A stretch of 64,000 nt of DNA from Candidatus Poribacteria bacterium (GCA_022825665.1 JAJDWI010000013.1:668-64667); one strand, 5' to 3'; positions 23,548 to 45,509 are shown, numbered from the stretch's first letter. Notes: generated from the sequence alone by a model not told the origin. Numbers and translations are program-made.

Positions 23548-26223
23548 ATGCGCAGAATTTCTATTTACACCTTCCTATTATTGCTCATCAACAGTGCCTA
23601 TCTATTCAGCTTTGGTGAACCAACCCTATTTTACATATCAAACGTTTTATTCCACTTAGCACTCGGTATAATCCTAATAATCCCATTCAGTGTCTATATC
23701 TACCAAAAATTCAGAAACATATCATATCTTGGATGGATTAGTATTGTTAGTTTAACACTCGGAATAGTCAGTGGTGGTTATCTCATGGTAGTCGGAGCAA
23801 CCACTCCATATCGTTGGCTATTAATAACACACATCGTCACAATTAGCATTGGTAGTATTCTCTTTTGCTTTCACTTGTTGAGAGACAGTACCAATCTTTC
23901 ACCCAGATTCAGAAGAACTATACTTGTTATTTTGATTGGTGTTTTGTTTTTTCCGATTGGAGCAAAGCTATCCCAACATTTTTTTCCGAACAAAGACTAT
24001 CTCGTCGTAAACCCAGCATTACCACCTGCAAGTATGTATGATGAAGGGGGTGGATCAACCGGACATTTTTTCCCTGCATCCGTTGAAACGGAAACAGGCA
24101 ACCTGATTCCAACTGACTTCTTTCTCACATCAGAAACCTGTGCATCAAAGGGATGCCATCCTGATATCTACAAGCAGTGGAACGAATCAGCACATCATTT
24201 TTCGTCATTCAATAACCAATGGTATCGTAAGTCAATCGTCTATATGCAGGAAGTTAATGGTATTCAACCGTCAAAATGGTGTGGTGGATGCCATGATCCT
24301 GCAATTCTACTCAACGGCGTCATGGATAAGCCGATAAGAGAAAACCTTCATACACCTGCAGCTCAAGCAGGCTTAGCTTGTACAGCATGCCACTCAATAG
24401 AACGCGTCAAAGATACGATGGGTAACAGCGGATATGTAATAAAATATCCCCCTCTCCATGATATAGCATCAAGCGACAATCGTATCATCCGCAGTCTGCA
24501 CAACTATCTCATACGTCTTGATCCTGAGCCACATCGCAAAAGCTTCTTAAAACCATTTCATCGTGAGAACACTGCTGAATTCTGTTCAACCTGTCATAAA
24601 GTTCATTTAGATTTTCCTGTGAATAATTTCAAATGGGTGCGCGGTTTCAATGATTATGATCAGTGGCAAAAAAGCGGGGTTTCACATCAAGGTGCACTCT
24701 CCTTCTACTATCCCGATAAGCCCAAGAAATGTGTTGATTGCCACATGCCGTTAGTTGACTCCAAGGATGCAGGAAACATAAACGGTAAAGTACATAGTCA
24801 CCGTTTTCCTGCTGCAAACACCGCCCTCCCCTATGTTAATCAACATCAGGAACAACTTCAAACCGTTGTTGACTTTCTACAAAATGATGTTATTACATTA
24901 GATCTATTTGCAAATGGTGTTCCAATCCCAAAAGATGGTGTTGAAATCAAACGTGGAGATGACCCGCTAATTGAGGTCGTGGTTCGCACACGTGGTGTTG
25001 GTCATCAATTCCCCGCTGGAACAATTGATGCTTTTGATATCTGGCTCGAGGTGAAAGCTACAGATGAGAACGGAAAGATTGTGTTTTGGAATGGAAGAAT
25101 AGATGCACCGGATGGAAATGGTCCTGTTGATCCGAGTGCCCATTTCTATCGTGCTTATATGTTGGATGAACACGGAAACTTGATAAATAAACGTAATGCT
25201 TGGGCAATGCGAACCGTCCTATATTCGCGCACCATTCCACCCGGTGCAGCTGATACAGTTCGGTATCGGTTAGAAATTCCTGAAGATTGTGGAGATACAC
25301 TCAATTTAGAAGTGAAACTTAACTATCGTAAATTCAACTGGTGGCATACACAGTGGGCTTATGCTGGTGTTCGCGATCCAGAGGATACTGACTATAAAGT
25401 CGATAAAGGTTACGATGATGGAAAGTGGGTCTGGACTGGAGACACATCGGATGTGGCAGGAAAAATAAAGGAAATTCCAAACCTACCAATTACTGTAATG
25501 GCAGATACCAATGCAACACTCCGTGTCGTACCTGCTTCACAGAATATCAAGATACAAAATACAGATGAAGTAAATGACCGTGAACGTTGGAACGATTACG
25601 GCATAGGACAGCTATTACAAGGAGATCTCAGAAAAGCAATAAGAGCATTTAGAGAAGTAACAAAAATAGAACCAGAATACTTAGATGGGTGGGTGAATAT
25701 AGCACGATGTCACATCAAAGAAGGTGATATGCAGAATGCGGAAAAAATGCTTGATAGGGCGTTTAAAATTCAGGAAACGTTACCACCTAATAACCCGCAT
25801 CGCGCAAAAGTTCACTACTTTTACGCGATAGTTCAAGAGTCTTACGGTAACTATGATATAGCAATACAACATCTTCAACATGCAGTTTCCCAATTCCCAC
25901 GTGATACACGAGTTCTCAATGAATTGGGACGTATTCATTATCTGAAACGGGAATATGAGACGGCTTTGGGGCACTTCCAGAACACACTTCAAGTGGATCC
26001 GGAAGATTTGGATGCACATTACAATATGATGCTGTGTTATAGCGGACTGAAAAATTCAGCTATGGCTGCTAAATCACGAAAACTTTACTTACGGTTTAAA
26101 GCGGATGAATCAGTTGATGCCATAACGGGTATTACTCGTCGCGCGGATCCTCATGCTAACCGTGAAAGACAAGCAATCCATGAACACATCAACAGTTATT
26201 ATTCTGAAACGGAAAATGAATAA
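23548..26223 (+). CDS. Membrane-anchored multihaem c-type cytochrome fused to C-terminal TPR repeats
   Basis: 891 aa with about 5 N-terminal TM helices. CxxCH motifs are CGGCH, CTACH, CSTCH and CVDCH, plus a C-x4-CH (CASKGCH). The C-terminal 200 aa are TPR-like. Confidence 0.75.
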   Translation: MRRISIYTFLLLLINSAYLFSFGEPTLFYISNVLFHLALGIILIIPFSVYIYQKFRNISYLGWISIVSLTLGIVSGGYLMVVGATTPYRWLLITHIVTISIGSILFCFHLLRDSTNLSPRFRRTILVILIGVLFFPIGAKLSQHFFPNKDYLVVNPALPPASMYDEGGGSTGHFFPASVETETGNLIPTDFFLTSETCASKGCHPDIYKQWNESAHHFSSFNNQWYRKSIVYMQEVNGIQPSKWCGGCHDPAILLNGVMDKPIRENLHTPAAQAGLACTACHSIERVKDTMGNSGYVIKYPPLHDIASSDNRIIRSLHNYLIRLDPEPHRKSFLKPFHRENTAEFCSTCHKVHLDFPVNNFKWVRGFNDYDQWQKSGVSHQGALSFYYPDKPKKCVDCHMPLVDSKDAGNINGKVHSHRFPAANTALPYVNQHQEQLQTVVDFLQNDVITLDLFANGVPIPKDGVEIKRGDDPLIEVVVRTRGVGHQFPAGTIDAFDIWLEVKATDENGKIVFWNGRIDAPDGNGPVDPSAHFYRAYMLDEHGNLINKRNAWAMRTVLYSRTIPPGAADTVRYRLEIPEDCGDTLNLEVKLNYRKFNWWHTQWAYAGVRDPEDTDYKVDKGYDDGKWVWTGDTSDVAGKIKEIPNLPITVMADTNATLRVVPASQNIKIQNTDEVNDRERWNDYGIGQLLQGDLRKAIRAFREVTKIEPEYLDGWVNIARCHIKEGDMQNAEKMLDRAFKIQETLPPNNPHRAKVHYFYAIVQESYGNYDIAIQHLQHAVSQFPRDTRVLNELGRIHYLKREYETALGHFQNTLQVDPEDLDAHYNMMLCYSGLKNSAMAAKSRKLYLRFKADESVDAITGITRRADPHANRERQAIHEHINSYYSETENE

Positions 26224-28467: not shown

Positions 28468-29229
28468 ATGAAAGCCTACTGTGTAAGTACCCTTCCATTC
28501 TCACAATTTCAAATGACTGAGTTTGTGGACTTGATCTCTCAAGCAGGAATCTCTGCTATAGAACTTGCACAAAGTCATTTTTCGGATGTGGATGCGGAAA
28601 CTATCGTTACACTTCAAGATGAGACCGGTATCCATTTCAAATCTTTACTAAGCACTGTGCAAGTTGACGCACCTGATGGACTTGATGCACTCATCTCAAT
28701 CCTTGATACTGCACAAAGGCTTTCTATTTCAACAGTCAGTATGGCAAGTGGTGGAAATGAAACCGCTACCACTCGTGAGGTTGACAAGATTATTAGTCTA
28801 CTCAAAACGGTTTGTGAAGAAGCATTGTCTCGAAGTCTTGATCTTGCTCTATATGCTCACGAAGGGAGTCTTGCATACAATCTTGAACGCACACAACAAC
28901 TCTTTGATGCAATCTCCTACGATAACTTTGGCTTTTATTATAGTGCCTATCATTTTCACCGCGCAGGAGATAATCCTGTTATCGCCTTACGAACTCTGTC
29001 AGAACGGTTATTCAGTGTGTATTTCAACTGTGGCGTTGATGCAACTACTGGCAGTGAACCTTTTTGGGCACCAGAGATGGATTTTTACGGTATCTGCAAA
29101 GAGATAAACCGTATCGGTTACAATGAGGAAATTATGTTAATCTATTTAGGATTGAAAACAGATTCTCCACAACCGATTATTGATGGAGTCATTAACGCGC
29201 GGACGAAGTTAGAATCCTATTTTGGTTGA
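28468..29229 (+). CDS. Sugar phosphate isomerase/epimerase-like TIM-barrel protein
   Basis: 253 aa with weaker family resemblance (GISAIEL.., LALYAHEGS). It follows the previous gene by 24 nt. Confidence 0.6.
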   Translation: MKAYCVSTLPFSQFQMTEFVDLISQAGISAIELAQSHFSDVDAETIVTLQDETGIHFKSLLSTVQVDAPDGLDALISILDTAQRLSISTVSMASGGNETATTREVDKIISLLKTVCEEALSRSLDLALYAHEGSLAYNLERTQQLFDAISYDNFGFYYSAYHFHRAGDNPVIALRTLSERLFSVYFNCGVDATTGSEPFWAPEMDFYGICKEINRIGYNEEIMLIYLGLKTDSPQPIIDGVINARTKLESYFG

Positions 29230-29303
29230 ATACTCCTAACTATTCTATTTTTCCTTGAGATGCAAGACAACACAATTACTAGAGTGTATCTCATAAATCA
29301 CTT

Positions 29304-29327
29304 GTAGGGGCGGGGTCTCCCCGCCCG
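29304..29327 (+). repeat. REP-like GTAG + GC hairpin (class B)
   Basis: GTAGgggcggggtctccccgcccg, with stem gggcgggg/ccccgccc. Confidence 0.7.
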
Positions 29328-29345
29328 ATTAGAGGCTCTCTTTCT

Positions 29346-29442
29346 GGGCGAGGTCCCCTCGCCCGCATGCTAATACCATTTCTAAATAATAACTTCTCAT
29401 TAACAAAAAAAGCGTTCGTAGTCGCGCAATTTATTGCGCCTC
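29346..29442 (+). repeat. 97-nt direct repeat, copy a (class B hairpin + 70-nt unit ending in GTAG-tcgcgcaat/attgcgc hairpin)
   Basis: Identical to 29553..29649 except for one base (g/a in the last hairpin). The period is 207 nt. Confidence 0.85.
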
Positions 29443-29452
29443 GGACATTCTC

Positions 29453-29477
29453 GTAGGGGCGAGGTCTCCTCGCCCGC
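29453..29477 (+). repeat. REP-like GTAG + GC hairpin (class B)
   Basis: GTAGgggcgaggtctcctcgcccgc. Confidence 0.7.
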
Positions 29478-29490
29478 AGGACATGAATAT

Positions 29491-29515
29491 CGGGCGGGGA
29501 AACCCCGCCCCTACG
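29491..29515 (-). repeat. REP-like GTAG + GC hairpin (class B), inverted
   Basis: cgggcggggaaaccccgcccCTACg, identical to 2605..2629. Confidence 0.7.
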
Positions 29516-29552
29516 AACGGGACGTGCCCAGACCCTGATAACAACCTCGTAG

Positions 29553-29649
29553 GGGCGAGGTCCCCTCGCCCGCATGCTAATACCATTTCTAAATAATAAC
29601 TTCTCATTAACAAAAAAAGCGTTCGTAGTCGCGCAATTTATTACGCCTC
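29553..29649 (+). repeat. 97-nt direct repeat, copy b
   Basis: See 29346..29442. Confidence 0.85.
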
Positions 29650-29705
29650 TTACATTTGGATTTATTAAAGTCTCAAAATGTGGTTTTATTTATTAGAATT
29701 GGTAT
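29580..29705 (+). mobile_element. MITE-like unit bounded by a 12-nt imperfect inverted repeat (ataccatttcta ... tagaattggtat)
   Basis: It starts ataccatttcta (29580) and ends tagaattggtat (29694..29705). It contains the GTAG-tcgcgcaat hairpin. A second full unit lies at 31565..31678. Confidence 0.5.
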
Positions 29706-29879
29706 TACAATGTCAGTGAATTTATGTAAGCAAAACATGGATTTTTCATTATTTTTTTAGATTATGCACGTTTTCTACACCCAAATTACGTCATTAGATT
29801 ATCTATCAAACGGAAAAATAATTGTTTCGTTAAACGAATTTAGTTCAACATCTAATGACCTAATATTTGGAGGTAAAAA

Positions 29880-31184
29880 ATGATTAACAGAATTAAACAC
29901 ACAATTGCAGTATTACTCGTTTTTAGTTTTTGTTCTCTCACTTACGCAGCACCACCCAAAGTCTCACGTTTTACACTAAGTAACGGTATCAAGGTTGTCA
30001 ATCTATATGTTGAGGATTCCACGGATGTCGTTATATTTAGTTATTTGCCACTTGGACTGGTTAGTGATGGGAAAGCGAAAACCCAGTGGTGCCATCTAAT
30101 TGAACACTTAACAATCAGAACTACAGGACCAATTGATTACCCAACAAGTAGTGCAGAAACTATGGCTGACAACATGCGTTTGGAATTTCTGGGTTCCACT
30201 GAAAATTGGATGCATGGATTGGAACTTCATACTAAATGGCTTTCTGGATTACCGTTTTCTGAGGAAAGTTTAGCAGAAGAATTGCCTAATGCATTATCCG
30301 AAATTGACATTACTGAACAGAGATTGGCAACTCATAAGTGGGCTGCTGCTGCCTGGAACCAAGTGTTTCGACACGGTGAAACTGATATATCAATGCGCGG
30401 TGATATTCAATCAGCTGAATTGGGTGATTTAGAAAAATACCGTGATCTTCATTTAGTCCAAGAAGATAGAGTGTTTTTGTGTGTCATCGGTGGACTTGAG
30501 ACTGAAACTTTGCAGCCAGCAATGGACGAGAAACTCGGTGCAATCAACATATCAGCAAAGTTTCTTCCTCCAGCAACAGCAATAGTGCCGATAAAAAAAG
30601 ACCAAACTGCTACATGGGATGTCAACGTAACACATTACATAGAAACTTACACGATACCCAACGCTGAAAATGATGACTATCCAGCATTGTATATAGCGAA
30701 CGCACTCCTGAACGTAGGGCTAATGCAAGATACCCAACTGAAGGGACTGACAGGTATGGTTGGCAGTAGTGTTGATATCGTGACACCTAAACAGACCTAT
30801 CTACAGATTAGTGCTTCAATCAAACCGGATGCAGATATAAACAAAGTGAAAATTAGAATTCGAGAATTGGTAAACCGAATGATGAAACCTGAGAACAATT
30901 TTCAGGTAGGAGAAGCTGCCCAATCCCTATCCATGCAATTCAGCTCACCACTGGATTTAGAAATGATGAAGCAATATAAACAGCAAGGTGTCTCTGAAAC
31001 CATGATGCTTGGTAATATTGGTCTCTGGTGGGGTATGCTTGAATATCGATATGGTGAGAATTTACCGCATCTGGCGAATGCATTAAATAATATCTCTGCA
31101 GAAGATGTTGCAAATGTCGTCAACAAATATTTATCTGAAAAGGATCGGACAACATTAGTTCTAATACCACGTGATGAAAAATAG
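29880..31184 (+). CDS. Secreted M16 (pitrilysin/insulinase)-like peptidase with an intact HxxEH motif
   Basis: 434 aa with a signal peptide. FTLSNGIKVVNL...YLPLG...QWCHLIEHLTIRTTG aligns with the M16 N-terminal pattern (..L.NGL.V....G..HflEH..FkGT). HLIEH is at 30093..30107. A GGAGG RBS lies upstream. Confidence 0.65.
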   Translation: MINRIKHTIAVLLVFSFCSLTYAAPPKVSRFTLSNGIKVVNLYVEDSTDVVIFSYLPLGLVSDGKAKTQWCHLIEHLTIRTTGPIDYPTSSAETMADNMRLEFLGSTENWMHGLELHTKWLSGLPFSEESLAEELPNALSEIDITEQRLATHKWAAAAWNQVFRHGETDISMRGDIQSAELGDLEKYRDLHLVQEDRVFLCVIGGLETETLQPAMDEKLGAINISAKFLPPATAIVPIKKDQTATWDVNVTHYIETYTIPNAENDDYPALYIANALLNVGLMQDTQLKGLTGMVGSSVDIVTPKQTYLQISASIKPDADINKVKIRIRELVNRMMKPENNFQVGEAAQSLSMQFSSPLDLEMMKQYKQQGVSETMMLGNIGLWWGMLEYRYGENLPHLANALNNISAEDVANVVNKYLSEKDRTTLVLIPRDEK

Positions 31185-31196
31185 CACAATATTGTT

Positions 31197-31261
31197 ATAC
31201 CATTTCTAAATAAATATGTATCATTATTTCGTAGGTCGGAGCGAGCAAAACAACCTCCGAC
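31197..31261 (+). repeat. Variant of the ataccatttctaaata unit ending in a different GTAG hairpin
   Basis: ataccatttctaaataaatatgtatcattatttcGTAGgtcggag-cgagcaaaacaac-ctccgac. Confidence 0.55.
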
Positions 31262-31270
31262 ATATATTAT

Positions 31271-31430
31271 GTCTGAACCGGGATGGACAGGATTATAGGA
31301 TTAGCAGGATAAGAGATATATATTCCAATGTTCCTTGGCAAAAGGTAGACGTTCATCCTTTACAACGGAATATATAATCACCAACTCCCAATCCTGAAAA
31401 TCCTGAAATCCTGAAAATCCTGGTTCAGAC
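31271..31430. mobile_element. MITE-like inverted-repeat element with about 40-nt arms built from gtctgaacc + (caggatt)n
   Basis: The left arm is gtctgaaccgggatggacaggattataggattagcaggat. The reverse complement of the right arm is gtctgaaccaggattttcaggatttcaggattttcaggat. The spacer is about 80 nt. A solo arm lies at 2470..2511. Confidence 0.55.
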
Positions 31431-31564
31431 AACAAGCAATTCAAACATACAAGAATCTCTAAATTGATGTCTATGGTGCGGTTTCCTAACCAATGCAGAA
31501 TACCAAGTACGTATTCTGCCATAAGACAAAAAATCTGATTTATCAAACTCACGTTACATAGATA

Positions 31565-31678
31565 ATACCATTTCTAAATAATAACTTCTCATTAACAAAA
31601 AACGCGTTCGTAGTCGCGCAATTCATTGCGCCTCTTACATTCTAATCCAGAAGGGAAATTCATCTATAGAATTGGTAT
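31565..31678 (+). mobile_element. MITE-like unit (ataccatttcta ... tagaattggtat), third direct copy of the 70-nt unit
   Basis: 31565..31634 aligns with 29373..29442. The closing inverted repeat tagaattggtat is at 31667..31678. Confidence 0.55.
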
Positions 31679-31858
31679 AATATAAAACATTGTTAGTATT
31701 CCAGAGGCATTCAATTGTCGCTTATCCATTGGGATTCAGACTTTCTAATCCGAACGTTCAATTTCATATCGGTTTAAACGGCAATTCAAATAATATTTTA
31801 CAAATTTGACAATAAAACTGAAATAAATTCAAAAAAAACCAAAAATGTAATTTTTTAC

Positions 31859-31888
31859 TTGACATTCGTTAATTGTCTATGTTATAAT
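31859..31888 (+). promoter_or_regulatory. Near-consensus extended -10 sigma70 promoter inside element copy A
   Basis: TTGACA (31859-31864), an 18-nt spacer ending in TGt, then TATAAT (31883-31888). The same arrangement is conserved in copy B. Confidence 0.6.
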
Positions 31889-31895
31889 ACATATC

Positions 31896-32421
31896 ACATA
31901 TAATCTTTAATCATGGTTAACCCAATTATGTTAACATTTTACGATACCAACATTCTTATGAAATTAGAAAAAATATACGAAATGGTAGTCAAAAAACTCG
32001 TAAATTTCCAGATGATGCAAAAGTTACCAAAATTTAATTTTTTTCTCCTGAAAAAACCGAATCTAATAACCTGTAAATCCAGACAAAGACTATACTCAGA
32101 CCGATTACACCAAAAGTTACCGTTATGTAAAAAAAGGTTACCGTACGGTAACCTTTTAAAGGTAGAAAATCCGATGAAATTTCTAATAAAAACTATTCGG
32201 CAAAAAGCAGATTTCACACATAAACAGAACCATCACCTTCAATTTTCCATACAGGAAGGTAACACAAAAAAACAGTCAATCATACAAAACCTAAACCGTC
32301 CCAAAAATGGCAAATTAAAAAATGCAAAAACACACACAAAAACCCCAGTAAACCCAGACAGGGACTGGAAAAACATCACCGTCCCAAAACCGTCCCAAAA
32401 GACGAAAACTGGGACGGTTTG
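31896..32421 (+). ncRNA. Candidate transcript of about 0.5 kb (A-rich, structured) from element copy A. No known RNA family recognised.
   Basis: It runs from the promoter above to the hairpin ccgtccca-aaagacgaaaac-tgggacgg + TTT (32390..32421). The 169-aa track ORF is not conserved as protein versus copy B. Compensatory base changes separate the copies. Confidence 0.4.
32390..32421 (+). terminator. Terminator-like hairpin at the 3' end of the candidate RNA (copy A)
   Basis: An 8-bp stem ccgtccca/tgggacgg followed by tttg. The stem is maintained by a C:G to A:T double change in copy B. Confidence 0.4.
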
Positions 32422-32541
32422 AAGGAAACAAAATTCAGAGAACTGGAAATAAAAAACGAGGTATATACTAGTATCTTACAGTGACAATTGAATGCCTCTG
32501 GATAGTAATCCAATCGTGTTGATGCATTATGGAGGAATCTA

Positions 32542-34734
32542 ATGGAGAAAGACGATGTTCAGTTGATTCATGCTGTCTTGTCTGGAGATGATGAAGCATT
32601 TGGCACATTAGTTAAAAAATACCAAAAGAGTGTTCATGCACTTGCATGGCGGAAGATTGCGGATTTTCATTATGCTGAGGAAATTACGCAAGACACCTTC
32701 ATTCAAGCATATAAGAAACTCTCAACACTAAAGGATTGTAACCAATTTGCTGGGTGGCTTTATGTCATTACAAACAATCTGTGCACTGATTGGCTCCGAA
32801 AGAAAAAACCCGCGATACAACCGATGGGGGATTCCTCAGTGAAAGAAATAGAGAAGCAAACCTATGAGCGTTATTTATTGGAAAAGCGTGAAAAAGAAGT
32901 ATCTGAACATCGTCACGAAATCGTCCAGCTATTGCTTGAAGAATTACCAGAAAGCGAACGTACTGTGGTAACTCTCTACTATCTCGGTGAAATGACAACG
33001 AAGGAAATAGGTAAGTTCATGGGGGTATCAGTTAACACAATCACAAGTCGACTCCAACGTGCACGAGAACGATTAAAAGCGTCAGGTGAACAACTTATTA
33101 ACGAAACACTGGGTGGTTGGCAGTTGCCAAATAACATATACGAGAACATCATGAAACAGATATCAGACATAAATCCGATACCATCTCCAACCGGTAAACC
33201 GTTCTTACCATGGGTTGCTTATAGTGCAGCTGCGGTTATAGTAATATTGTTGATCAGTGTAAGCAACCAGTTTCTTGCCAGATTTCAGGAACCATATAGT
33301 TTGGAAGCACAATCTGAACCGACTATTGAGATTGTTGATTCGCTTGTAGTTCTGGAAACTGACGCAAAACCATCGATGCGAAATCAAATCGGACAGGATG
33401 TTACAACAGGAAAAACCAGCAGCACGGGTTCGGATTTAAGCGAGAAGATCTCAGCACCAAATACCTCAGAAAATACTCTCAAGCTTCCTTTTGCTTATTC
33501 TGACCCTAAAGTGTCACGTTTTACTTTAAGCAATGGTATACGAGTGGTCAATCTGCATGTTGAAAACGCCAAGGATGTCGGTATTTTCAGTTATTTGCCG
33601 CTTGGATTCGTTGGTGATGCAAAAGCAAAGACACAATGGAGCAACCTAATAATGCACCTATCAATTCGATCAACAGGTCCGATTGACTATAGAACAAGTA
33701 ACGCAGAAACAATGACTGACAACATGCGTTTTGATTTCATCGGCAATACGGATACATGGACACACGGGTTGAAATTACACGCAAAATGGCTTTCTGGTTT
33801 ACCCTTTACAGCGGAAAGTCTCGCCGAGGCACGACTAAACGCTTTGGCACAAATTGAATTTGTTGAAAAGAATTTGGCGACCCATAAGTACGCAGATGCT
33901 GCGTGGCACCAAGTGGTTCAACATGGAATAAACGATATAGCGATACGAGGGAATATTCAATCTGCGCAATTGAGTGATCTACAGGAATATCGTGATCAGA
34001 ATTTGGTCCAAAAGGATGGCGTGCTTTTATGTGTAATTGGAGGAGTTGATCCCGACACACTAAAAGAGAGCATGGAAGAAGGTTTAGGTGCAATTAGTTT
34101 AACAGAGAAGAAGTTGCCCCATAAAATAGGATCAACAGAGATAACAAGAGATCAAAATGCTACTTGGGATTTAAAAGTTACCCATTACATGGAGGCATAC
34201 CCAATGCCTTCTCCTGAAGACAAAGATTATCCCTCTCTATATATTACGAGTCTACTTTTACAGGGTTCTTTATTGCAAGATGCTAAATTGAAGGAAATGG
34301 TTGGGAACATTTTCTGTAGTGTTGACCTCGGCACACCTGAACAAGGATACTTATATGTAAGTGCATCTTTAAAACCTGATACAGATATAATGGAGGTAAA
34401 AGAGCGAATAGGGCAATTGATTAAAAAGTTAAAAGAATCCTATAATCAATTACAAATATATATGATTGCAAAGTCTATATCCAAAGAACTCAGCGCACCA
34501 CCGGATTTGAACACTCTCATGCAAAATAAGCCTGAAAATGTTTCAGAGACTTATGCACTTCTTCAGGTCGGTGTATCATGGGGAATGATGGAATACAAAT
34601 ATGGGGAGTACCTTGCACAACTCGCGAGTGCATTTGCAGACGTTACTGCAGCGGATGTTTCCAGTGTGGTCAACAGATATATAACTGTAGATCAGCGAAA
34701 GACTTTAGTTCTTTCGCCGCGAGCATCAAAATAA
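32542..34734 (+). CDS. ECF sigma-70 factor fused via one TM helix to a degenerate M16-like (pseudo-peptidase) ectodomain
   Basis: 730 aa. The N-terminus has sigma region 2 (..HYAEEITQDTFIQAY..WLYVITNNLCTDWLRKKK) and region 4 HTH (ERTVVTLYYLGEMTTKEIGKFMGVSVNTITSRLQRARERLK). The TM helix is PWVAYSAAAVIVILLISV (about aa 223-240). Residues from about 320 to 730 are paralogous to 29880..31184, but HLIEH is replaced by NLIMH (33643..33657). A GGAGG RBS lies upstream. Confidence 0.8.
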   Translation: MEKDDVQLIHAVLSGDDEAFGTLVKKYQKSVHALAWRKIADFHYAEEITQDTFIQAYKKLSTLKDCNQFAGWLYVITNNLCTDWLRKKKPAIQPMGDSSVKEIEKQTYERYLLEKREKEVSEHRHEIVQLLLEELPESERTVVTLYYLGEMTTKEIGKFMGVSVNTITSRLQRARERLKASGEQLINETLGGWQLPNNIYENIMKQISDINPIPSPTGKPFLPWVAYSAAAVIVILLISVSNQFLARFQEPYSLEAQSEPTIEIVDSLVVLETDAKPSMRNQIGQDVTTGKTSSTGSDLSEKISAPNTSENTLKLPFAYSDPKVSRFTLSNGIRVVNLHVENAKDVGIFSYLPLGFVGDAKAKTQWSNLIMHLSIRSTGPIDYRTSNAETMTDNMRFDFIGNTDTWTHGLKLHAKWLSGLPFTAESLAEARLNALAQIEFVEKNLATHKYADAAWHQVVQHGINDIAIRGNIQSAQLSDLQEYRDQNLVQKDGVLLCVIGGVDPDTLKESMEEGLGAISLTEKKLPHKIGSTEITRDQNATWDLKVTHYMEAYPMPSPEDKDYPSLYITSLLLQGSLLQDAKLKEMVGNIFCSVDLGTPEQGYLYVSASLKPDTDIMEVKERIGQLIKKLKESYNQLQIYMIAKSISKELSAPPDLNTLMQNKPENVSETYALLQVGVSWGMMEYKYGEYLAQLASAFADVTAADVSSVVNRYITVDQRKTLVLSPRASK

Positions 34735-38398: not shown

Positions 38399-39265
38399 TC
38401 ATTGAGGAGATGAATTAGGCAAAGATGTAATTGGAAAAATGCCGTTCTGCAGAAGATCGTCATGGATTATCCTATAGCATTTATCCAAAAATTTGATTGT
38501 TTGGTTATAAACATTCTGGCAAAAAGTAATCATTTCAGTCTCGGCAGGATCTGTGTTGGTGTGAAAGAAAGAATTTCGGAAATACAATTTGGTGACTGCC
38601 GGAGAACCTGTTAAGGCAATTGAAGATGAGGAAATCATCACGCCATCTATATCATCATGTACCAACTGATGTCTAATTTCCCTCGCGATATTGAATGTGG
38701 AACCCTTTTTATCAGGTTTCCCGTTCTGATCTATCGCGTGAAAGACGCGTAAATGGCGAATCAAATTTCCATTCGGAAATTTGTTGTCCAATGCTTTACG
38801 AATATAAGATGGTCGATCATCCGAAGGTTTTAAATCGTAAACGATGTTAATGATTTTCGCAATACAGTCCTCTAAACTAACGAGATTTGAAAAGAAACCG
38901 CCCAAAACAATGAAAACAACCAACGCGGAGTTTTCAGGCAACATGTCAGAGTTGTTGTTCAACAAGTTGATTTCAACATGGAAATCGTTGTCTGTAAAGT
39001 TGACAAAAGACTTTGATACAAATGACCATTCTAATTCTGCTGGAGAAACAACTTGGAGTCCCAAATAAAAATCGGATTCCATGTTTTGAATTGCGTTAAA
39101 GTAAAACTTTGCCGCGTTGATTCGTTGTCTGGTTATTCGAACAAGTTCTATAATGCTTAATTCAGCCTCTTGAGCAGCTACCTCTACCAAGTCCTGCGTT
39201 TTCCGGTTTGTAGCAAGTTCATCAATTTTCTGAAGGAGACTGGCTTCATACGTTAAGTTTACCAT
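38399..39265 (-). CDS. HEPN-like protein (candidate RNase effector or partner of the STAND protein)
   Basis: 288 aa, largely helical. The candidate HEPN motif R198-x4-H203 sits in FNIAREIRHQLVHDD (38657..38674). Its start overlaps the upstream stop (gaATGgTAAac), which indicates translational coupling. Confidence 0.45.
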   Translation of the reverse strand: MVNLTYEASLLQKIDELATNRKTQDLVEVAAQEAELSIIELVRITRQRINAAKFYFNAIQNMESDFYLGLQVVSPAELEWSFVSKSFVNFTDNDFHVEINLLNNNSDMLPENSALVVFIVLGGFFSNLVSLEDCIAKIINIVYDLKPSDDRPSYIRKALDNKFPNGNLIRHLRVFHAIDQNGKPDKKGSTFNIAREIRHQLVHDDIDGVMISSSSIALTGSPAVTKLYFRNSFFHTNTDPAETEMITFCQNVYNQTIKFLDKCYRIIHDDLLQNGIFPITSLPNSSPQ

Positions 39266-42200
39266 TCTTCCCCTTCAAGAAATTCTTCATCTTCCTGGGC
39301 AAGCCATTCAATTTCCTGTTGTGTCATGTCTATCAGACTTGCAGCAAACTCTACAACAATCTGTGAATTGGTTCTATTTTGCCATGTTTTGAGGTCCTCA
39401 ATGCGTCTCACAAGATGTGATGCTGGTTTCCCGACGGTTCTCGCTGAAACCCCTGAAGAAAGTGCAACGGTGATTCCACCTTGTGCTTTTTTGTCCCCAT
39501 TGCTTTTAATGAGAACCGACTCTGCAAGAAAATAAAAGACTGCATCTGTCTCAAAACCTCTCATTAGATAGGCAGCCCCTCTCATCATTTCTAAATTTCC
39601 TGAGTTAATCCATTCCTCAAGGAGTTTCTGCATTGGCGCGTTAATTTTAATCCCATCACTGTGAGGATCATCTCCACTAATCATAGATACAAGTAATATA
39701 GGTGCTTCAAATCTAAGGAGGTTTGAGGACGTAAGAACCCAGTCTCTGACTCGTCTCAAAGCCTCCATAGCGTTCTTATCACTCCAATCAACATCCTTAA
39801 ACAAATAGTGTGGACGATGTGGTACAGCGTCAAACTTCAACAATTCTAATGGACGGTCCGAAAATGAATCGTAACGGTTAGATTCATCCTCTTTGTAAGT
39901 AATTCGTTCCTCAAAAAACTCAATAACCCATATAGGATCGTGCTTGAAAATTGCCTGAAGGGCTTTTTCAGAGTCATAATCAAGGCGTTCTAAACGAACA
40001 CAATTAAGCATCACTTGCTTGTATTTTTCCAAGTGATTTTTTGAAGAGAATTTAAGATCTTTACTTGTGATCGCGTGGATGACTTGTCTCATAACCACCG
40101 GTGATTCATCACTTGATAGTCTTACTAAAATCTTAAGAACAGTGTCTGCATCCACAACATAGAAATTCGGGAGACTTTCGGTTATATACAGTCGCAATTG
40201 CGGGTCTGACGTTTTAGACAATAGGTCTAAAATTGACAGGTCTTCTTTTCCAAAGGATGGGTCAGTTTTACTTTTCCACAAGTAACTTCTTGCAACAATA
40301 CGTTTGGCAAAGATGATGTTCTGATCTAAAAGTCGTTGAGTTGCTTCGCTTGCTTTATCTTTGTCAGAACAGCGAATACCATTGAGTAATCCAGAGGCAC
40401 AATGCGATTCCTCTGTTTGCCAAGCAATAATGTAATCTAATAGACAAACCCCATACGAATGGTCAAGTTTACCGATAGATTGAAGCAGTAATGTTGCAGT
40501 TCCAGGATTCCACCCCTTTTCTGCCCAAATACTGTCTCCAGTACTACGGTACTCCTTCCCTGTTTCAACAACCATTATACATTCTTGCATTAATTTCGAG
40601 AGTTCCGCGGGTTTGTATTTCTTGAGGTATTTTTTCAAGAACGCCTGGGTTTGCTCAAGACTTTCACTCAGATCCCAATCACGGAATTTCCCAGTGAATT
40701 GACGGTAGAATAGGTATCTTTCATAATTTTCACGTTTGTGGAATTTCTCAAGTAATTCCGTTGCCTTCTCTTTTGGAAAATCGTCTAAATACATATTTTC
40801 TGTATATCCTTGGAGACACTGATCTATTGCATTTAGAACGGTGAAATCGGTTTCTCTTGAGATTTGCTCAGCTAATATGTTGAAGAGTCGTTCCTGTTCT
40901 TTTTGTAATTGAACCTGATCCTCTTCTGCGATTCCCTGCCGAAATGGACTCTCTAAAGGATTTATCGCTCGACTAATAGATCCTATCGCCTTTGTTCTGA
41001 TGATACTATGTTGAGACTTTCTCAAACAAAACTCAATTAGGTCAATCGCCTTCGTTCTGAGTTCGATCAATTCAGGTGTATATTTCAAATGGTGCCAACC
41101 AAACTTCAAAGAACCGCCTTCGCTAAAGGTTTCACTAAAATCCAGCACAAGAAGAGTGTCAAGTGCATTGAGTAGTGCCAAACTTAGTTCAGGCTTATCC
41201 TCTGTTTTCCACACCTCAAACCCTTCAAGCACCTTGGTTTGAAATACGCTGGGTTTACTTGTATGGAAACCTGTCATCCTTTTCAACAATTCTTGCGGCG
41301 AGTCGTTATTAGGAAGTTCCAAACCTTCCATCAGCAGAAGTTTCCGAACTATTTCAAGTGTCTTTATGAATCCAGAGAGTGTATTGACTGTCTTCTGTGC
41401 TTCTTTAGCAACCTGCTGTACTACATCTTGGTGGGTCCGTGTAGATGTCCACCCTGCATATTGCTTTACATAGTCTTCTTTAGGATTATCTAAGATAATA
41501 TTGAAAATATCAGTTGCATCATCTGGACGAAAATAACTAATACCTTCCATTTGTTCCAAAATATGCTCTCTAACGGCATTATCGCCTTCCCGTACTTGGA
41601 TTTTAGTAGAAGCGACATGATCATCAAGGAGACTCCTTTGACCAACTATGTTTTCTACACGAGCCAGATTGACAATTACCTTGACAGGGTGAATTGGCAA
41701 AAATTCCTTCAAGAGAGTTTTGTGATAAAAAGACGGTCTCTTGTCATTGGACAAAAAGCATGCTTTCCGTAAAATATAGTCGCTGAGTGCATCAGGATAG
41801 ACACGTTGTTTTCGCCCAATTTGGACAAGCAAACCGTATTTTATTAGATCATCGCGATACTGCTCTATCTCATAGGGCTCCACTTTTAAGATTTCAGCCA
41901 ATTTTTCGCATATTTGGCTGTTTTCAGCTTCAATCGGCTCAATCCCACTAAACCAATCCAGCAATTTACGGTGCTGCTTTTCGGATTCTGGTAGATATTT
42001 GCTGAAAATGTCATTTAGATAAGCATCAAAGGTGAGTTCAATCCGTTTATCATGTGTAATTAAGTTGCTCAGATGAATGCCTTCCTTAAAGAGATGTATC
42101 ACCATAACGGCGATCAGCGGAGTATCTCGTCCAATCTGTGCTAACTCTGCCAATAAAGATCCGTCGGAAATATCTGTATATGTGCTGATAAATTCCTTCG

Positions 42201-43188
42201 TTTTTTCCAGAGAAATTTTTCTAATTTCAAGTTCATCAGTTGCATCATCAGGTAATGTAGTAAGAAAACAACTATCCAAAAACGCTTTGAATGGCTTCCG
42301 TGTTATAAGGACTGCTTTGGATTCACTGTATTCGGAACTATTTAGAAGTATTCTAATACCTCCAAGGTTATCAAGCCTGTCATGTGCGTTATCTACAAAA
42401 AAGATGTAGTTACGATGGGGAGGAATATCTGCAAGGGCATTTTCAAAACTGTCATCAGCCATCTGAACAAAGAGTGGCACATAATCAGTGTAGTCACGTT
42501 CAACTGTCTTTGCAAAATCAATAGCAAGTTTGGTTTTTCCAATCCCTCCACTACCGTACATTGTGAGTAGTCTTTTTTCTGGGTTTTGAACAAAGGCTTG
42601 AAATCGACTAATCTCATCCTCACGTCCGAAAGTTTCATAGTCATATCGTAAAAGGTGATGTTTATCTGCAATTTGATTTCGGAACATATCCTGCCAACAA
42701 AGGAATACAGGTAGATGAGGATCTCGGAATGAATTTAATAGGTATGGAAACTCGTCGGTCATTGAAATAAGATCTTCAGCATCCCAACAGGTTAACGTAA
42801 AGGTATACCCTCTCTCATTTTTAATGTCCTCAATTTTACGCTTGTTTCCTGCAGTAAGCAAAGTGTTAGTCATGAGAACGTAGTGGTCGCATTGCTGGGC
42901 ATCCGCTTTGTCAAGTTCCCCCTTTTGACGTTTTCCGCCCTTCATCTTTGAAATGAGTTGACTGCGGACACGCCCTTTATCCATGGTTGGATCAAAGAAT
43001 TTGTACTGGAATATCCAAGTGCCGTCCTTTTCCTTATAATATCCGTTATAGTCCGCGTCAATTCCACCATCGCGTCCTTGTGCATCGTAAACCTTTACAA
43101 AGGGGGACACCTCTTTCTTCAGAAACAAGTTGCAAAATCTGTCAAAACTTTCTTCTGATTGTATATAGTCTGATAATACTTTTTTCAT
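39259..43188 (-). CDS. Mrr-like (PD-(D/E)xK) nuclease + STAND P-loop NTPase + long helical-repeat C-terminal region (Avs-like architecture)
   Basis: 1309 aa. The N-terminal GRDGGIDADY..(16 aa)..WIFQYKFF matches the Mrr_cat D..D..QxK pattern. Walker A is YGSGGIGKTKLA (aa 211-222) and Walker B is YIFFVDNAHD (aa 261-270). About 900 C-terminal residues are helical-repeat-like. Confidence 0.7.
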   Translation of the reverse strand: MKKVLSDYIQSEESFDRFCNLFLKKEVSPFVKVYDAQGRDGGIDADYNGYYKEKDGTWIFQYKFFDPTMDKGRVRSQLISKMKGGKRQKGELDKADAQQCDHYVLMTNTLLTAGNKRKIEDIKNERGYTFTLTCWDAEDLISMTDEFPYLLNSFRDPHLPVFLCWQDMFRNQIADKHHLLRYDYETFGREDEISRFQAFVQNPEKRLLTMYGSGGIGKTKLAIDFAKTVERDYTDYVPLFVQMADDSFENALADIPPHRNYIFFVDNAHDRLDNLGGIRILLNSSEYSESKAVLITRKPFKAFLDSCFLTTLPDDATDELEIRKISLEKTKEFISTYTDISDGSLLAELAQIGRDTPLIAVMVIHLFKEGIHLSNLITHDKRIELTFDAYLNDIFSKYLPESEKQHRKLLDWFSGIEPIEAENSQICEKLAEILKVEPYEIEQYRDDLIKYGLLVQIGRKQRVYPDALSDYILRKACFLSNDKRPSFYHKTLLKEFLPIHPVKVIVNLARVENIVGQRSLLDDHVASTKIQVREGDNAVREHILEQMEGISYFRPDDATDIFNIILDNPKEDYVKQYAGWTSTRTHQDVVQQVAKEAQKTVNTLSGFIKTLEIVRKLLLMEGLELPNNDSPQELLKRMTGFHTSKPSVFQTKVLEGFEVWKTEDKPELSLALLNALDTLLVLDFSETFSEGGSLKFGWHHLKYTPELIELRTKAIDLIEFCLRKSQHSIIRTKAIGSISRAINPLESPFRQGIAEEDQVQLQKEQERLFNILAEQISRETDFTVLNAIDQCLQGYTENMYLDDFPKEKATELLEKFHKRENYERYLFYRQFTGKFRDWDLSESLEQTQAFLKKYLKKYKPAELSKLMQECIMVVETGKEYRSTGDSIWAEKGWNPGTATLLLQSIGKLDHSYGVCLLDYIIAWQTEESHCASGLLNGIRCSDKDKASEATQRLLDQNIIFAKRIVARSYLWKSKTDPSFGKEDLSILDLLSKTSDPQLRLYITESLPNFYVVDADTVLKILVRLSSDESPVVMRQVIHAITSKDLKFSSKNHLEKYKQVMLNCVRLERLDYDSEKALQAIFKHDPIWVIEFFEERITYKEDESNRYDSFSDRPLELLKFDAVPHRPHYLFKDVDWSDKNAMEALRRVRDWVLTSSNLLRFEAPILLVSMISGDDPHSDGIKINAPMQKLLEEWINSGNLEMMRGAAYLMRGFETDAVFYFLAESVLIKSNGDKKAQGGITVALSSGVSARTVGKPASHLVRRIEDLKTWQNRTNSQIVVEFAASLIDMTQQEIEWLAQEDEEFLEGEEW

Positions 43189-43422: not shown

Positions 43423-44460
43423 ATGTATAAAAGTGCGATATTAGGGTGTGGTGGACGCGCCCGCGGGCATGCAAATGCCTATCGCTATGTTAAAGGTGGT
43501 AAACTCGCGGCAATATGTGATATGAATGAAGAACGTCTCAATGATTTCGGTGATAGATTTGAAATCTCTTCACGTTATACAGATTTGGATGAGATGCTTG
43601 AAAAAGAGAAACCTGATTTACTTCATATTGTGACTGCCCCAACTTTACGCGGCTCCAATCAGCGCATTAGGTATTCACTGATGAAGCAAGCATCTGATTG
43701 TGGGGTTCCTGCAGCAATTGTAGAGAAACCAATTGCTGTGGATAGCGATGACTGGAAACAAATCGCTGGGTTAGCAGCAGAAACAAAGACCAAGTTTGTT
43801 GTCAACACACAACTCAACTTCCATCCAAAAAACATTGAATTGAAGCGAGATGTAGCTGACGGTAAAATCGGTGAGATAAAGTTTATTGATGCAAGTGCAA
43901 GAAGCACCTCAGCCAATCAGGGACCTCATGTGCTTCAATTAGTTTCGTCGTATATAGACAATTCTCGACCCGTACGGGTGTTAGGTCAAATAGCAGGGAA
44001 TAAGAATTTGGACTCTGCAGAACCTTCACCGATGGACGCTGCTGCACAGGTTATATATGAAAATGGACTTCATGCTTCAGTGGCATTTGGTGAGGGTATG
44101 GGAGCTAAAGCATCTAATGCCCCAGCCAGATTTCGTCATAAACGCGTATTTGTCGTTGGGACAGAAGGTTTCGTACATTGGCGTTTTAGTAGTTGGGAAC
44201 GTTCTACACGAACTGGTGGCTACGAAGGTGGAGGACTCAACTATGGTGATCAGGATGTTCAAGCACAAGGCAATCTAACTGAAGCAGTTTATGATTGGCT
44301 TGATAATGAGAAAAATATCCATCCGACACATTTAAAGCAATCCCTTGCTGAATTTAATCTGATATTAGGTATTTATCAAAGTGGTATTACGAACCAGATA
44401 ATTGATCTTCCATTTGACCCTCCAGATGGATTAATTGATTCCCTAAAAGAAAATCTATAG
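43423..44460 (+). CDS. Gfo/Idh/MocA-like oxidoreductase, tandem paralogue 1 of 3
   Basis: 345 aa. The N-terminus is AILGCGGRARGHANAY, with an EKP motif (IVEKPIAV). A GGAG RBS lies upstream. Confidence 0.85.
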   Translation: MYKSAILGCGGRARGHANAYRYVKGGKLAAICDMNEERLNDFGDRFEISSRYTDLDEMLEKEKPDLLHIVTAPTLRGSNQRIRYSLMKQASDCGVPAAIVEKPIAVDSDDWKQIAGLAAETKTKFVVNTQLNFHPKNIELKRDVADGKIGEIKFIDASARSTSANQGPHVLQLVSSYIDNSRPVRVLGQIAGNKNLDSAEPSPMDAAAQVIYENGLHASVAFGEGMGAKASNAPARFRHKRVFVVGTEGFVHWRFSSWERSTRTGGYEGGGLNYGDQDVQAQGNLTEAVYDWLDNEKNIHPTHLKQSLAEFNLILGIYQSGITNQIIDLPFDPPDGLIDSLKENL

Positions 44461-44471
44461 GAGATAATTAC

Positions 44472-45509
44472 ATGTTTAAAAGTGCGATATTAGGATGTGG
44501 TGGACGCGCAGGCGGACACGCAAGTGCCTATCGCTTCGTAAAAAGTGGAAAACTCGCTGCAATCTGTGATATGAGCGAGGAACGTCTCAACAATTTCGGT
44601 GATAGATTTGAAATCTCTTCACGTTACACAGATTTGGATGAGATGCTTGAAAAAGAGAAACCTGATCTACTACACATTGTTACCGCACCAGTCTTACGCG
44701 GTTCCAATGAGCGTATTCGGTATTCATTGATGAAACAAGCATCTGACCACGGTGTGCCTGCGGCAATTGTAGAGAAACCGATTACTGTTGAAAGCTCAGA
44801 ATGGAAACAGATCGCTGGTTTAGCAGAAGAAACTAAAACAAAGTTTATTGTCAATACACAACTCAACTTCCATCCAAAAAATCTTGAACTTAAGCGTGAC
44901 GTTGCTGATGGTAAGATTGGTGAGATTAAGTTTATTGATGCAAGTGCAAGAAGCACACCTGTAGACCAAGGACCACATGTGCTCCAATTAGTTTCATCCT
45001 ATATAGATAATTCTCGTCCGGTAAGGGTGTTAGGTCAAATTTCTGGAAGAGATCATTTGGAATCTGCCCAACCATCACCAATGCATGCTGCTGCACATGT
45101 GATGTACGAAAATGGGCTTCACGTATCTGTTGCATTTGGTCAGGGGGTCGGTACAATGGCATCTGATGATCAGGGAATATATTGCCACAAACGTGTATTT
45201 GTCGTTGGAACGGAGGGATTTGTACATTGGCGTTTTAGTAGTTGGGAACGCGCTACACGAGCTGGTGGCTACGAAGGTGGACCACTTAACTATGGTGAGC
45301 AGGATGTTGAAGCACAAGGAAACCTAACAGAAGCAGCCTTTGCATGGCTTGATGATGAAAACAAACAACATCCGACACATCTTAAGCAATCCCTTGCTGA
45401 GTTTAATCTGCTATTAGGAATCTATCAAAGCGGTATTACGAACCAGATAATTGATCTTCCATTTGATCCACCGGACGGTTTAATGGATTCACTCAGAGCA
45501 AAGTTGTAA
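44472..45509 (+). CDS. Gfo/Idh/MocA-like oxidoreductase, tandem paralogue 2 of 3
   Basis: 345 aa, collinear with and highly similar to 43423..44460. The intergenic gap is 11 nt and contains GGAG. Confidence 0.85.
   Translation: MFKSAILGCGGRAGGHASAYRFVKSGKLAAICDMSEERLNNFGDRFEISSRYTDLDEMLEKEKPDLLHIVTAPVLRGSNERIRYSLMKQASDHGVPAAIVEKPITVESSEWKQIAGLAEETKTKFIVNTQLNFHPKNLELKRDVADGKIGEIKFIDASARSTPVDQGPHVLQLVSSYIDNSRPVRVLGQISGRDHLESAQPSPMHAAAHVMYENGLHVSVAFGQGVGTMASDDQGIYCHKRVFVVGTEGFVHWRFSSWERATRAGGYEGGPLNYGEQDVEAQGNLTEAAFAWLDDENKQHPTHLKQSLAEFNLLLGIYQSGITNQIIDLPFDPPDGLMDSLRAKL

Follow-up and report, generated by a model that had tools for sequence, protein, structure and literature searches.

A 64-kb window of Candidatus Poribacteria bacterium (GCA_022825665.1 JAJDWI010000013.1:668-64667; 64,000 nucleotides, one strand, positions counted from the first letter) encodes a single polypeptide of 730 amino acids (aa) in which an extracytoplasmic function (ECF) sigma factor continues through one transmembrane (TM) helix into an M16B-type peptidase domain that has lost its catalytic glutamate. 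Upstream on the same strand lies the gene for a 434-aa exported paralogue of this domain, with the active-site motif intact. Poribacteria are an uncultivated phylum of sponge symbionts. A preliminary description of the window had read the two genes in this way, as a one-polypeptide ECF sigma factor with an extracytoplasmic pseudo-peptidase (N-in/C-out) next to an intact exported paralogue, and the profiles, alignments and models reported below point to the same arrangement. Missing from that description was what is now the decisive context, namely that the sigma factor and its membrane anchor form a chassis carrying interchangeable ectodomains. The chassis is defined here as the N-terminal ~300 aa (window positions 32542-33411; proteins P0002-P0150 and P0326-P0445, P-numbers being protein cluster labels in the homologue listings). 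The loci used for comparison are L001 (contig JAJEAG010000014 of a metagenome-assembled genome, MAG), L002 (JAJECK010000035), and L003-L006 and L008/L009, which derive from Tara and other ENA assemblies and one NCBI MAG.

Architecture of the sigma fusion

The two genes and the parts of the fusion protein are as follows.

29880-31184, + strand: gene for a 434-aa exported peptidase subunit of M16B type, presumed to be catalytically competent
32542-34734, + strand: gene for the membrane-tethered ECF sigma::M16B pseudo-peptidase fusion, 730 aa
32608-33078, + strand: ECF sigma core, sigma2 at aa 23-89 and sigma4 at aa 126 to about 178-179 (Pfam, NCBIfam)
33133-33168, + strand: helix of the cytoplasmic tail, conserved, aa 198-209, NIYENIMKQISD, after sigma4 and before the membrane
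33205-33279, + strand: single TM helix, aa 222-246 (hydropathy and AlphaFold2)
33280-33411, + strand: conserved extracytoplasmic juxtamembrane motif, aa 247-290, RFQxPYSxEAxSEPTIEIVD...KP..RNQ.G
33394-33504, + strand: variable Ser/Thr-rich tether, aa 285-321 (composition)
33505-34731, + strand: M16B-type pseudo-peptidase ectodomain, aa 322-730 (fold and alignment)

Positions and lengths of both open reading frames (ORFs) match exactly those given previously, and each ORF is preceded at 7-8 nt by a GGAGG Shine-Dalgarno sequence. From the N-terminus, the 730-aa protein thus consists of an ECF sigma factor, a tail of ~40 aa, one TM helix, the juxtamembrane motif, the Ser/Thr-rich tether and a full two-domain M16B-type subunit.

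Sigma-70 regions 2 and 4, already noted in the preliminary description, are recovered by Pfam (Sigma70_r2, aa 23-89, 1.3e-12; Sigma70_r4_2, aa 126-178, 1.8e-16), together with Sigma70_ECF (accessions PF04542, PF08281/PF04545 and PF07638). The NCBIfam sigma70-ECF model TIGR02937 is matched at 101 bits (cut-off 42.9). Only sigma2 and sigma4 are present, in a core of ~180-190 aa, as in ECF (group IV) sigma factors. The closest NCBIfam equivalogs are SigW, RpoE and SigM, the best being SigW at 119 bits, which is under its cut-off of 209 bits. AlphaFold2 modelled the core from an alignment of 77 sequences with a predicted local distance difference test score (pLDDT) of 85-97, and the top structural matches of this model are SigW, AlgU and sigmaE (29-31% identity, E 1e-8 to 1e-7).

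Sigma4 and the TM helix are separated by ~40 aa only, and aa 184-221 hold neither Cys nor His. No anti-sigma Pfam domain (FecR or other, zf-HC2) was detected in the fused protein. The tail contains a short helix that is kept as 'nLteNImrei' in 114 chassis representatives and is modelled with pLDDT ~82 from the deep alignment; it is a candidate minimal inhibitory or anti-sigma-like element. A single TM helix and a Ser/Thr-rich linker had been described before, and hydropathy, AlphaFold2 and composition bear both out: there is one hydrophobic segment (aa 222-240, Kyte-Doolittle 2.29; helix 225-246/247 in the model), preceded directly by a 'KP..PW' motif that is conserved in the chassis, and Ser and Thr make up 35% of the tether versus 14.5% of the entire protein. 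The topology is taken to be N-in/C-out because the sigma factor must be cytoplasmic and the exported protein, to which the ectodomain is paralogous, has a signal peptide.

On the outer side of the membrane, the same 114 chassis representatives share the juxtamembrane motif RFQxPYSxxAxSExT[IV]EIvD...KP..RNQ.G whatever ectodomain follows. This segment is predicted to be disordered (pLDDT <50), and conservation of the chassis stops near residue 290. It is a candidate segment for recognition or cleavage by a site-1 protease.

The M16B-type ectodomain and its exported paralogue

The collinearity of about 410 aa reported earlier between the two proteins is confirmed by BLASTP: aa 26-434 of the exported protein and aa 322-730 of the fusion are identical at 228/409 positions (56%) with 0 gaps (E=1e-164). 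The features that distinguish the two copies are listed below; the coordinates given earlier for HLIEH and NLIMH are exact.

29880-29951, + strand: signal peptide of the exported protein, aa 1-24
30093-30107, + strand: HLIEH of the exported protein, aa 72-76
30279-30281, + strand: E134 of the exported protein
30300-30302, + strand: distal Glu E141 of the exported protein
33643-33657, + strand: NLIMH of the fused protein, aa 368-372
33829-33831, + strand: A430 of the fused protein, counterpart of E134
33850-33852, + strand: Q437 of the fused protein, counterpart of the distal zinc ligand E141

The exported protein has the residues of an active subunit (H72, E75, H76, E134 and E141), in register with PDB 5euf and MPP-beta. 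At these positions the fused domain has N368, M371, H372, A430 and Q437, having lost both Glu of the M16 'ExxxxxxE' element (E134 to A430, E141 to Q437) besides the catalytic Glu. By these residues, the sigma-fused M16 domain is a pseudo-peptidase.

Assignment to M16 had been made conditional on matches to PF00675 and PF05193. The latter (Peptidase_M16_C) is found in both proteins, at 2.2e-9 and 1.1e-7, and PF00675, the profile of the N-terminal half, matches neither protein in Pfam searches even at E<=1. To judge from sequence comparison this half is divergent, and its assignment therefore rests on PDB alignments, profile matches and fold search. It aligns to 5euf with HxxEH in register (phmmer and hidden Markov model, HMM, alignment), and the family profile matches 14 PDB M16 sequences, including MPP-beta, TTHA1264, PA0372 and Sph2681. 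The AlphaFold2 model of the ectodomain (pLDDT mostly 75-94) has the two-domain alpha/beta fold of M16 proteins, which span ~400-450 aa. Foldseek against the PDB aligns it over 430-450 columns with E values of 1e-19 to 1e-15 (best 2.5e-19) and target-normalised TM-scores of 0.72-0.75. The top structures are the M16B subunits 5euf, 3eoq/7v4y, 3ami/3amj, 4nnz and 3hdi, together with MPP and bc1 core proteins. The spacing from HxxEH to the distal Glu is 69 residues here versus 75-80 in heterodimeric M16B enzymes. Sources label the exported protein 'insulinase family protein [Candidatus Poribacteria bacterium]'. Roughly a sixth of the listed unfused homologues are longer, at ~684 aa, with a C-terminal extension of ~250 aa that has no Pfam match (among them P0160, P0164 and P0174; L003:5877-7934).

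Reality of the fusion and selection

The preliminary description did not recognise this combination of domains and allowed for a frameshift or an assembly error as its origin. The combination turns out to be widespread in Candidatus Poribacteria MAGs, and such an error is excluded by the recurrence of the continuous ORF, at 711-735 aa, in at least 10 independent Candidatus Poribacteria assemblies. The L001 orthologue is uninterrupted and 92% identical over aa 1-730, and fusion ORFs also occur in L003, L004, L005, L006 and L008/L009. Clusters P0246-P0270 (727-735 aa) carry sigma and M16 Pfam domains together, and the window protein's own 90% cluster has five 730-aa members on separate contigs. 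The sigma::M16 fusion is therefore real. Public databases list these fusion proteins under generic names, the NCBI label of the orthologue MCY3740787.1 being only 'sigma-70 family RNA polymerase sigma factor'.

The ratio of non-synonymous to synonymous substitution rates (dN/dS) between the window and L001 is 0.09 in the sigma core, 0.16 in the tail, TM helix and juxtamembrane motif, and 0.25 in the M16-like domain; between L003 and L006 it is 0.12 in the fused M16-like domain and 0.15 in the unfused paralogue. The dead domain is maintained by purifying selection. A chimera of assembly or frameshift, or a pseudogene, could have been suspected from the additional motif decay and the upstream repeat insertion in the window lineage, and from the frameshifted C-terminus of the L006 orthologue; set against uninterrupted ORFs of 727-735 aa in many independent assemblies, dN/dS values of 0.09-0.25 in every part and a strong Shine-Dalgarno sequence at both genes, this explanation is effectively refuted. 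The L006 orthologue itself (L006:6471-8606, 711 aa) diverges after ~aa 666 and reflects either a sequencing error or a decaying copy.

A chassis with interchangeable ectodomains

An exhaustive search with the full 730-aa protein returned 402 representatives at E<1e-30. Among the best 150, about 125 share with it only residues 1 to ~305 (45-62% identity), with total lengths of 400-1377 aa. A second search, with residues 1-320, gave 1,656 clusters at E<=1e-40, and all named ones belong to Candidatus Poribacteria. The C-terminal parts borne by the chassis fall into at least 22 unrelated ectodomain clusters, among them WD40, Sortilin/BNR-like, LRR, Kelch, Reg_prop, CarboxypepD_reg, redoxin/AhpC, trypsin+TPR, laminin-G and Big_5 domains. 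Many of the 'eukaryote-like' repeat domains of Poribacteria may therefore be sigma-tethered sensors. C81 is the sole Cys conserved at >=90% in the chassis.

One such exchange is seen at the same locus. In L002, where the flanking genes are the same, the first 314 residues of the sigma protein (L002:7971-9935) show 87.6% DNA identity to window 32528-33483. Homology ends at window position 33483, inside the tether, and at the protein level after 'ENTLKL'; the remainder of the L002 sigma protein is a WD40 propeller in place of the M16 domain. No M16-like gene is found within 17 kb in L002. At this locus the M16 type prevails, and the window chassis is nearer to the L002 WD40 protein than to its counterparts in other M16-type orthologues (77% aa identity). 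From both facts the swap looks recent, the unfused gene having been lost with the fused domain.

A separate architecture is represented by P0026, P0117 and P0121 from other metagenomes. These proteins combine an unrelated ECF sigma factor (25% identity) and ~4 TM helices with an M16-like domain of the same clade in which HxxEH...E is intact. The P0026 architecture (L010:2952-5618, L011:1684-4350) stands alone between hemE and tig-clpP-clpX, and P0144 has a multi-TM part and an M16-like domain but no sigma factor. Fusion of a sigma factor to a member of this M16 clade has thus happened more than once.

Gene pairing and the fate of the catalytic residues

The distribution of catalytic residues was surveyed in the best 120 homologues of the unfused protein together with the two window proteins, 111 sequences being unfused and 11 fused. 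All 111 unfused proteins retain H[LI][IV]EH and E141, and 110 of them E134. The catalytic Glu is retained in none of the 11 fused domains, which have Asn (10) or, in the window copy, Met; they also have Gln at the position of E141 (9/11) and Ala at that of E134 (8/11). The motif varies by lineage, as HLINH (7/11), HLINY, HLVNH and NLIMH, with HLVNY in P0001. That the fused lineages decay differently beyond the catalytic Glu fits a non-catalytic role that keeps the fold.

Six loci are informative, in that both sides can be seen; in five of them (the window, L003, L004, L006 and L008/L009) the fused gene has the unfused one as its immediate upstream neighbour, at a distance of 56-165 bp outside the window lineage. 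Two unfused homologues picked blind to their context, P0171 and P0252, both proved to have a fused neighbour. Fused and unfused M16 subunits are 56-75% identical. Three other chassis paralogues were checked (redoxin, trypsin+TPR and Sortilin-like), and next to none of them lies an unfused paralogue of the ectodomain or a gene of ~200 aa of the kind described below; pairing is therefore particular to the M16 type. As far as sequence can tell, the conserved gene order (5/6), the 111/111 versus 0/11 split and the joint loss in L002 give real support to the view that the exported and fused proteins may work jointly.

The usual first gene of the M16 module encodes a membrane protein of ~200-210 aa with Gly/Ser/Ile-rich repeats (GxxSxG-like), found at these positions:

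L003:5203-5805
L004:4929-5540
L005:5225-5836
L008:4298-4930

It has no Pfam match and was not found in the window by tblastn; it could be a further partner, or even a substrate.

By HMM alignment to 5euf, the R/Y position of supporting M16 subunits corresponds to K288/F(+7); K288 is invariant in both classes and +7 varies. An F/Y asymmetry at +7 (11/11 fused versus 49/111 unfused) was considered as a sign of a supporting subunit and dropped, as the position is variable in the wider clade, with His in P0001.

Putative promoter block and repeat-rich spacer

Upstream of the unfused gene lies a conserved block that resembles a two-part ECF promoter, with a GCAC/T-rich element followed by CGTC. The block and the features of the spacer between the two genes are as follows.

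29752-29800 (core 29765-29791), + strand: conserved ECF-like promoter block, TTTTTTTAGATTATGCACGTTTTC-N-AAATTACGTC, 94 nt before the ATG of the unfused gene
31185-32541: AT-rich, repeat-laden spacer, 1357 bp between the unfused and fused genes
31270-31431: 41-nt inverted repeat, in the spacer
31538-31641: dispersed-repeat copy of 104 nt, in the spacer
31700-31722 / 32480-32502: perfect 20-23-nt inverted repeats bounding a stretch of 803 bp, in the spacer
31859-31888, + strand: putative promoter with perfect sigma-70 consensus, TTGACA-18-TATAAT with TG, facing the sigma gene
31913-32422: Lys-rich ORF of 169 aa, in the 803-bp stretch
~32133-32158: perfect palindrome AAAAGGTTACCGTACGGTAACCTTTT, in the 803-bp stretch

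The block, with the consensus TTTTTTcAGATTATGCAC[GC]TTTT-N-AAATTACGTC, occurs once in the 64-kb window versus 0 expected by chance. In L002, L003, L005, L006, L007 and L008/L009 the block stands on the + strand ahead of the gene that opens the module, and in L014 it precedes an unlinked sigma::Sortilin-like paralogue. We read it as a putative promoter and the family's own candidate target.

The sigma-70 promoter at 31859-31888 is the only 12/12 match in the region and lies inside the 803-bp stretch, an insertion that may be a mobile element resembling a miniature inverted-repeat transposable element (MITE). By comparison with L003 and L004, native intergenic sequence restarts just after 32502. 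L001 has the insert from 31774 on, at 92% identity, and its contig ends in the 104-nt repeat. The ORF at 31913-32422 has no Pfam match and is probably not a gene, and an Rfam scan of 29200-32600 gave only sub-threshold chance matches.

The dispersed intergenic repeat of ~104 nt has 4 copies in the window (29296-29660, 31538-31641 and, on the minus strand, 17784-17813), and GC-rich palindromic units, GTAGGGGCGAGGTCTCCTCGCCCG, are clustered at 29296-29574, where they give a spurious 94-aa minus-strand ORF.

Proposed mechanism and alternatives

We propose that the fusion is a one-component ECF sigma factor freed by proteolysis, which senses through a hybrid active/inactive M16B clamshell; we give this proposal about an even chance of being right. 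The tethered dead subunit and the exported live one would pair on the membrane's outer face. Such pairing is proposed because M16B enzymes are two-subunit clamshells, often with one active and one inactive subunit, and active/inactive pairs encoded by adjacent genes assemble in this way (TTHA1264/1265, Sph2681/2682 and AlbE/F, as well as MPP alpha/beta; PMC12731061). These heterodimers are also among the top structural matches of the ectodomain. Capture of a peptide, or opening and closing of the chamber, would alter the exposure of the juxtamembrane segment or tether to a site-1 protease; a site-2 protease would then, by analogy with other membrane-held sigma systems, cut within the membrane, and the freed sigma domain would bind RNA polymerase. 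The anti-sigma factors of SigW (RsiW), sigmaE (RseA) and AlgU are removed by such regulated intramembrane proteolysis. IutY, a sigma factor fused to a membrane-spanning regulator, is released by proteolysis via Prc and RseP, and the ECF52 protein SCO4117 is cited as a further precedent for the release of a fused membrane-spanning sigma factor (PMC8999054, PMC5411451). The freed sigma domain would read the conserved promoter block and so induce the live peptidase and, in most genomes, itself; in the window, the 1.36-kb repeat insertion with its perfect sigma-70 promoter has parted the sigma gene from the block.

Several observations weigh against this proposal. The step of proteolytic release is argued by analogy with the systems just named, and Pfam recognises no anti-sigma domain between sigma4 and the TM helix. 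As the chassis also carries ectodomains that have no peptidase partner, its general switch cannot depend on an M16 neighbour. L005 has a fused gene without an adjacent unfused copy, and the R/Y pair that is the classic signature of the supporting M16 subunit is not conserved in the clade. In a quick neighbour-joining tree the fused domains form two clades interleaved with unfused ones; this history could be explained by one fusion followed by gene conversion, or by two independent fusions. The CAC-to-CGTC spacing of the promoter block, 19 nt, is longer than in SigW- or sigmaE-type promoters, and in the window the pair is parted by the 1357-bp gap, so that the sigma gene may use the inserted sigma-70 promoter.

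In a possible, though on balance rather improbable, alternative the dead M16 domain acts alone or as a homodimer, as a stand-alone receptor for a peptide that the live enzyme degrades, and no heterodimer is formed. The receptor would be a natural substrate trap, the catalytic Glu being replaced by Asn with both His usually kept, and the unfused gene would be a member of the regulon that removes the inducer. The HLINH motif of 7/11 fused domains, in which the catalytic Glu alone is changed, fits such a trap and resembles the E-to-Q substrate-trapping mutants of MPP that are among the structural matches (1hr7/1hr8). The promoter block precedes the live gene, as it should for a target, L005 lacks the adjacent partner, and homodimeric M16B enzymes such as BH2405 exist (PMC12731061). 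However, the distal zinc ligand is lost in 9/11 fused domains, and in the window lineage (NLIMH) one His as well; the pseudo-site is therefore not preserved for binding. Close conserved adjacency and the joint loss in L002, moreover, fit a physical partnership at least as well.

Two further readings concern the switch itself. The live neighbour might be the site-1 protease, docking on the dead subunit and cutting the sigma factor's own tether or juxtamembrane motif, in the way that MPP cleaves an extended presequence which its inactive subunit holds, and so setting off release of the sigma domain. The tether does join the N-terminus of the dead subunit directly, the two genes are co-encoded, and MPP-type enzymes cut extended N-terminal segments of folded proteins (PMC12731061). 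This self-contained arrangement is nevertheless unlikely: the juxtamembrane motif is kept in paralogues that have no peptidase partner, for which a common outside protease is simpler, L005 has no adjacent live copy, and if the sigma factor induces the live gene the loop would be one of pure positive feedback with no evident input. Release may also be unnecessary, the tethered sigma factor recruiting RNA polymerase at the membrane in the manner of ToxR or CadC under control of the oligomerisation or conformation of its ectodomain. The failure of Pfam to detect an anti-sigma domain and the cytoplasmic tail of only ~40 aa agree with this, and regulation by protein interaction or conformational change has been proposed for the WD40-bearing ECF57 (PMC8999054). 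We consider it quite unlikely, as the nearest characterised sigma factors (SigW, sigmaE and AlgU) and IutY are all activated by regulated intramembrane proteolysis. To our knowledge, no sigma factor functions while anchored in the membrane.

A bolder version of the hybrid clamshell proposal, which we hold only tentatively and think somewhat improbable, would regard the ectodomain as the non-catalytic part of a split peptidase and make assembly or closure of the M16B chamber itself the signalling step, whether by trapping peptides of the host or community or by cutting the tether of the sigma factor, and would extend it to a wider Poribacterial plug-and-play sigma chassis with repeat domains as transcriptional sensors. 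If true, a peptidase chamber would here, for the first time, gate a sigma factor directly. If the pairing of the live and dead subunits holds, pseudo-peptidases would have acquired a new job, that of coupling a peptidase chamber to transcription.

Comparison with known systems

ECF sigma factors with a fused membrane-spanning C-terminal extension are a known general kind (ECF243, ECF52/53, ECF57), although mostly from sequence. The preliminary description held that few ECF groups carry fused C-terminal extensions; with 19 of 157 groups doing so (PMC7826278), such extensions cannot be called very rare. The sole experimentally characterised case of this layout is a sigma/anti-sigma hybrid, IutY of Pseudomonas putida (ECF243; PMC5411451; PMC8999054). 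Like it, the window protein joins in one chain an N-terminal ECF sigma factor, one membrane span and an extracytoplasmic C-terminal regulatory part. The signal for IutY comes from a TonB-dependent receptor, and its FecI-type sigma factor is joined to an anti-sigma domain of FecR type, whereas the window protein has no FecR domain, a SigW/sigmaE-like sigma factor and an M16B pseudo-subunit with a co-encoded live paralogue.

Members of ECF52, such as SCO4117, share the long C-terminal extension, which comprises a TM helix, a Pro-rich spacer and an extracytoplasmic binding domain (PMC8999054; PMC7826278). The zinc-finger (ZAS) anti-sigma element of ECF52/53 is not seen in the window protein. ECF57 (formerly ECF01-Gob, of Planctomycetes) has a WD40-type extension, as carried by the L002 orthologue, where the window protein has M16. 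In a comparison based on the description given in a review (PMC8999054), ECF57 has two conserved Cys linking sigma2 and sigma4, and the chassis only C81. No M16 domain, and no comparable range of swapped ectodomains on a single conserved chassis, is reported for ECF52/53 or ECF57.

Heterodimeric M16B enzymes (Sph2681/Sph2682, TTHA1264/TTHA1265, PA0371/PA0372, AlbF/AlbE and MPP alpha/beta) resemble the window pair in their two-domain fold, in having one subunit with HxxEH...E and one without, and in their adjacent genes (PMC12731061). In these enzymes the two soluble subunits differ strongly in sequence, and an R/Y pair or Gly-rich loop comes from the inactive partner (PMC12731061). Here, in contrast, the subunits are 56-75% identical, R/Y is not conserved, and a sigma factor carries the inactive subunit as its ectodomain.

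A literature search found no paper on a sigma::M16 fusion, on an ECF sigma factor with a pseudopeptidase, or on Poribacterial ECF sigma factors. Partial analogies come from two other systems. In BlaR1/MecR1, the BlaR1 sensor is a catalytically crippled paralogue of the enzyme class it induces; in RsgI/SigI, the RsgI anti-sigma paralogues bear varied extracellular sensors on a shared transmembrane scaffold and signal by proteolysis. In both of these the DNA-directed component is separate, whereas here the sigma factor is part of the same chain.

What sets the present system apart is a pseudo-peptidase sensor with its live paralogue in cis, a natural exchange of ectodomains at one locus, and a plug-and-play family of unusual size. 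It is an unusually clear case, in that a recognisable dead-enzyme sensor has its live paralogue and a candidate target promoter alongside and has had its ectodomain swapped at the same locus in nature; from sequence one can thus put forward a signal, a partner and an output, all open to testing in a heterologous host. The family as a whole suggests how the phylum wires varied extracellular binding domains to gene expression.

Other genes of the window

The segment 38344-43422 holds two minus-strand ORFs, of 288 aa (38399-39265) and 1309 aa (39259-43188), with no Pfam, NCBIfam or PADLOC match. The Gfo/Idh/MocA genes that flank it are adjacent in L001, in comparison with which the segment therefore appears to be a ~5-kb insertion. 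At 43423-46677 lie three tandem paralogues of a 345-aa Gfo/Idh/MocA oxidoreductase, of which L001 has four. The gene at 23548-26223 encodes an 891-aa protein with multihaem cytochrome domains (Cytochrome_C554, MtrC-like) and C-terminal TPR repeats.

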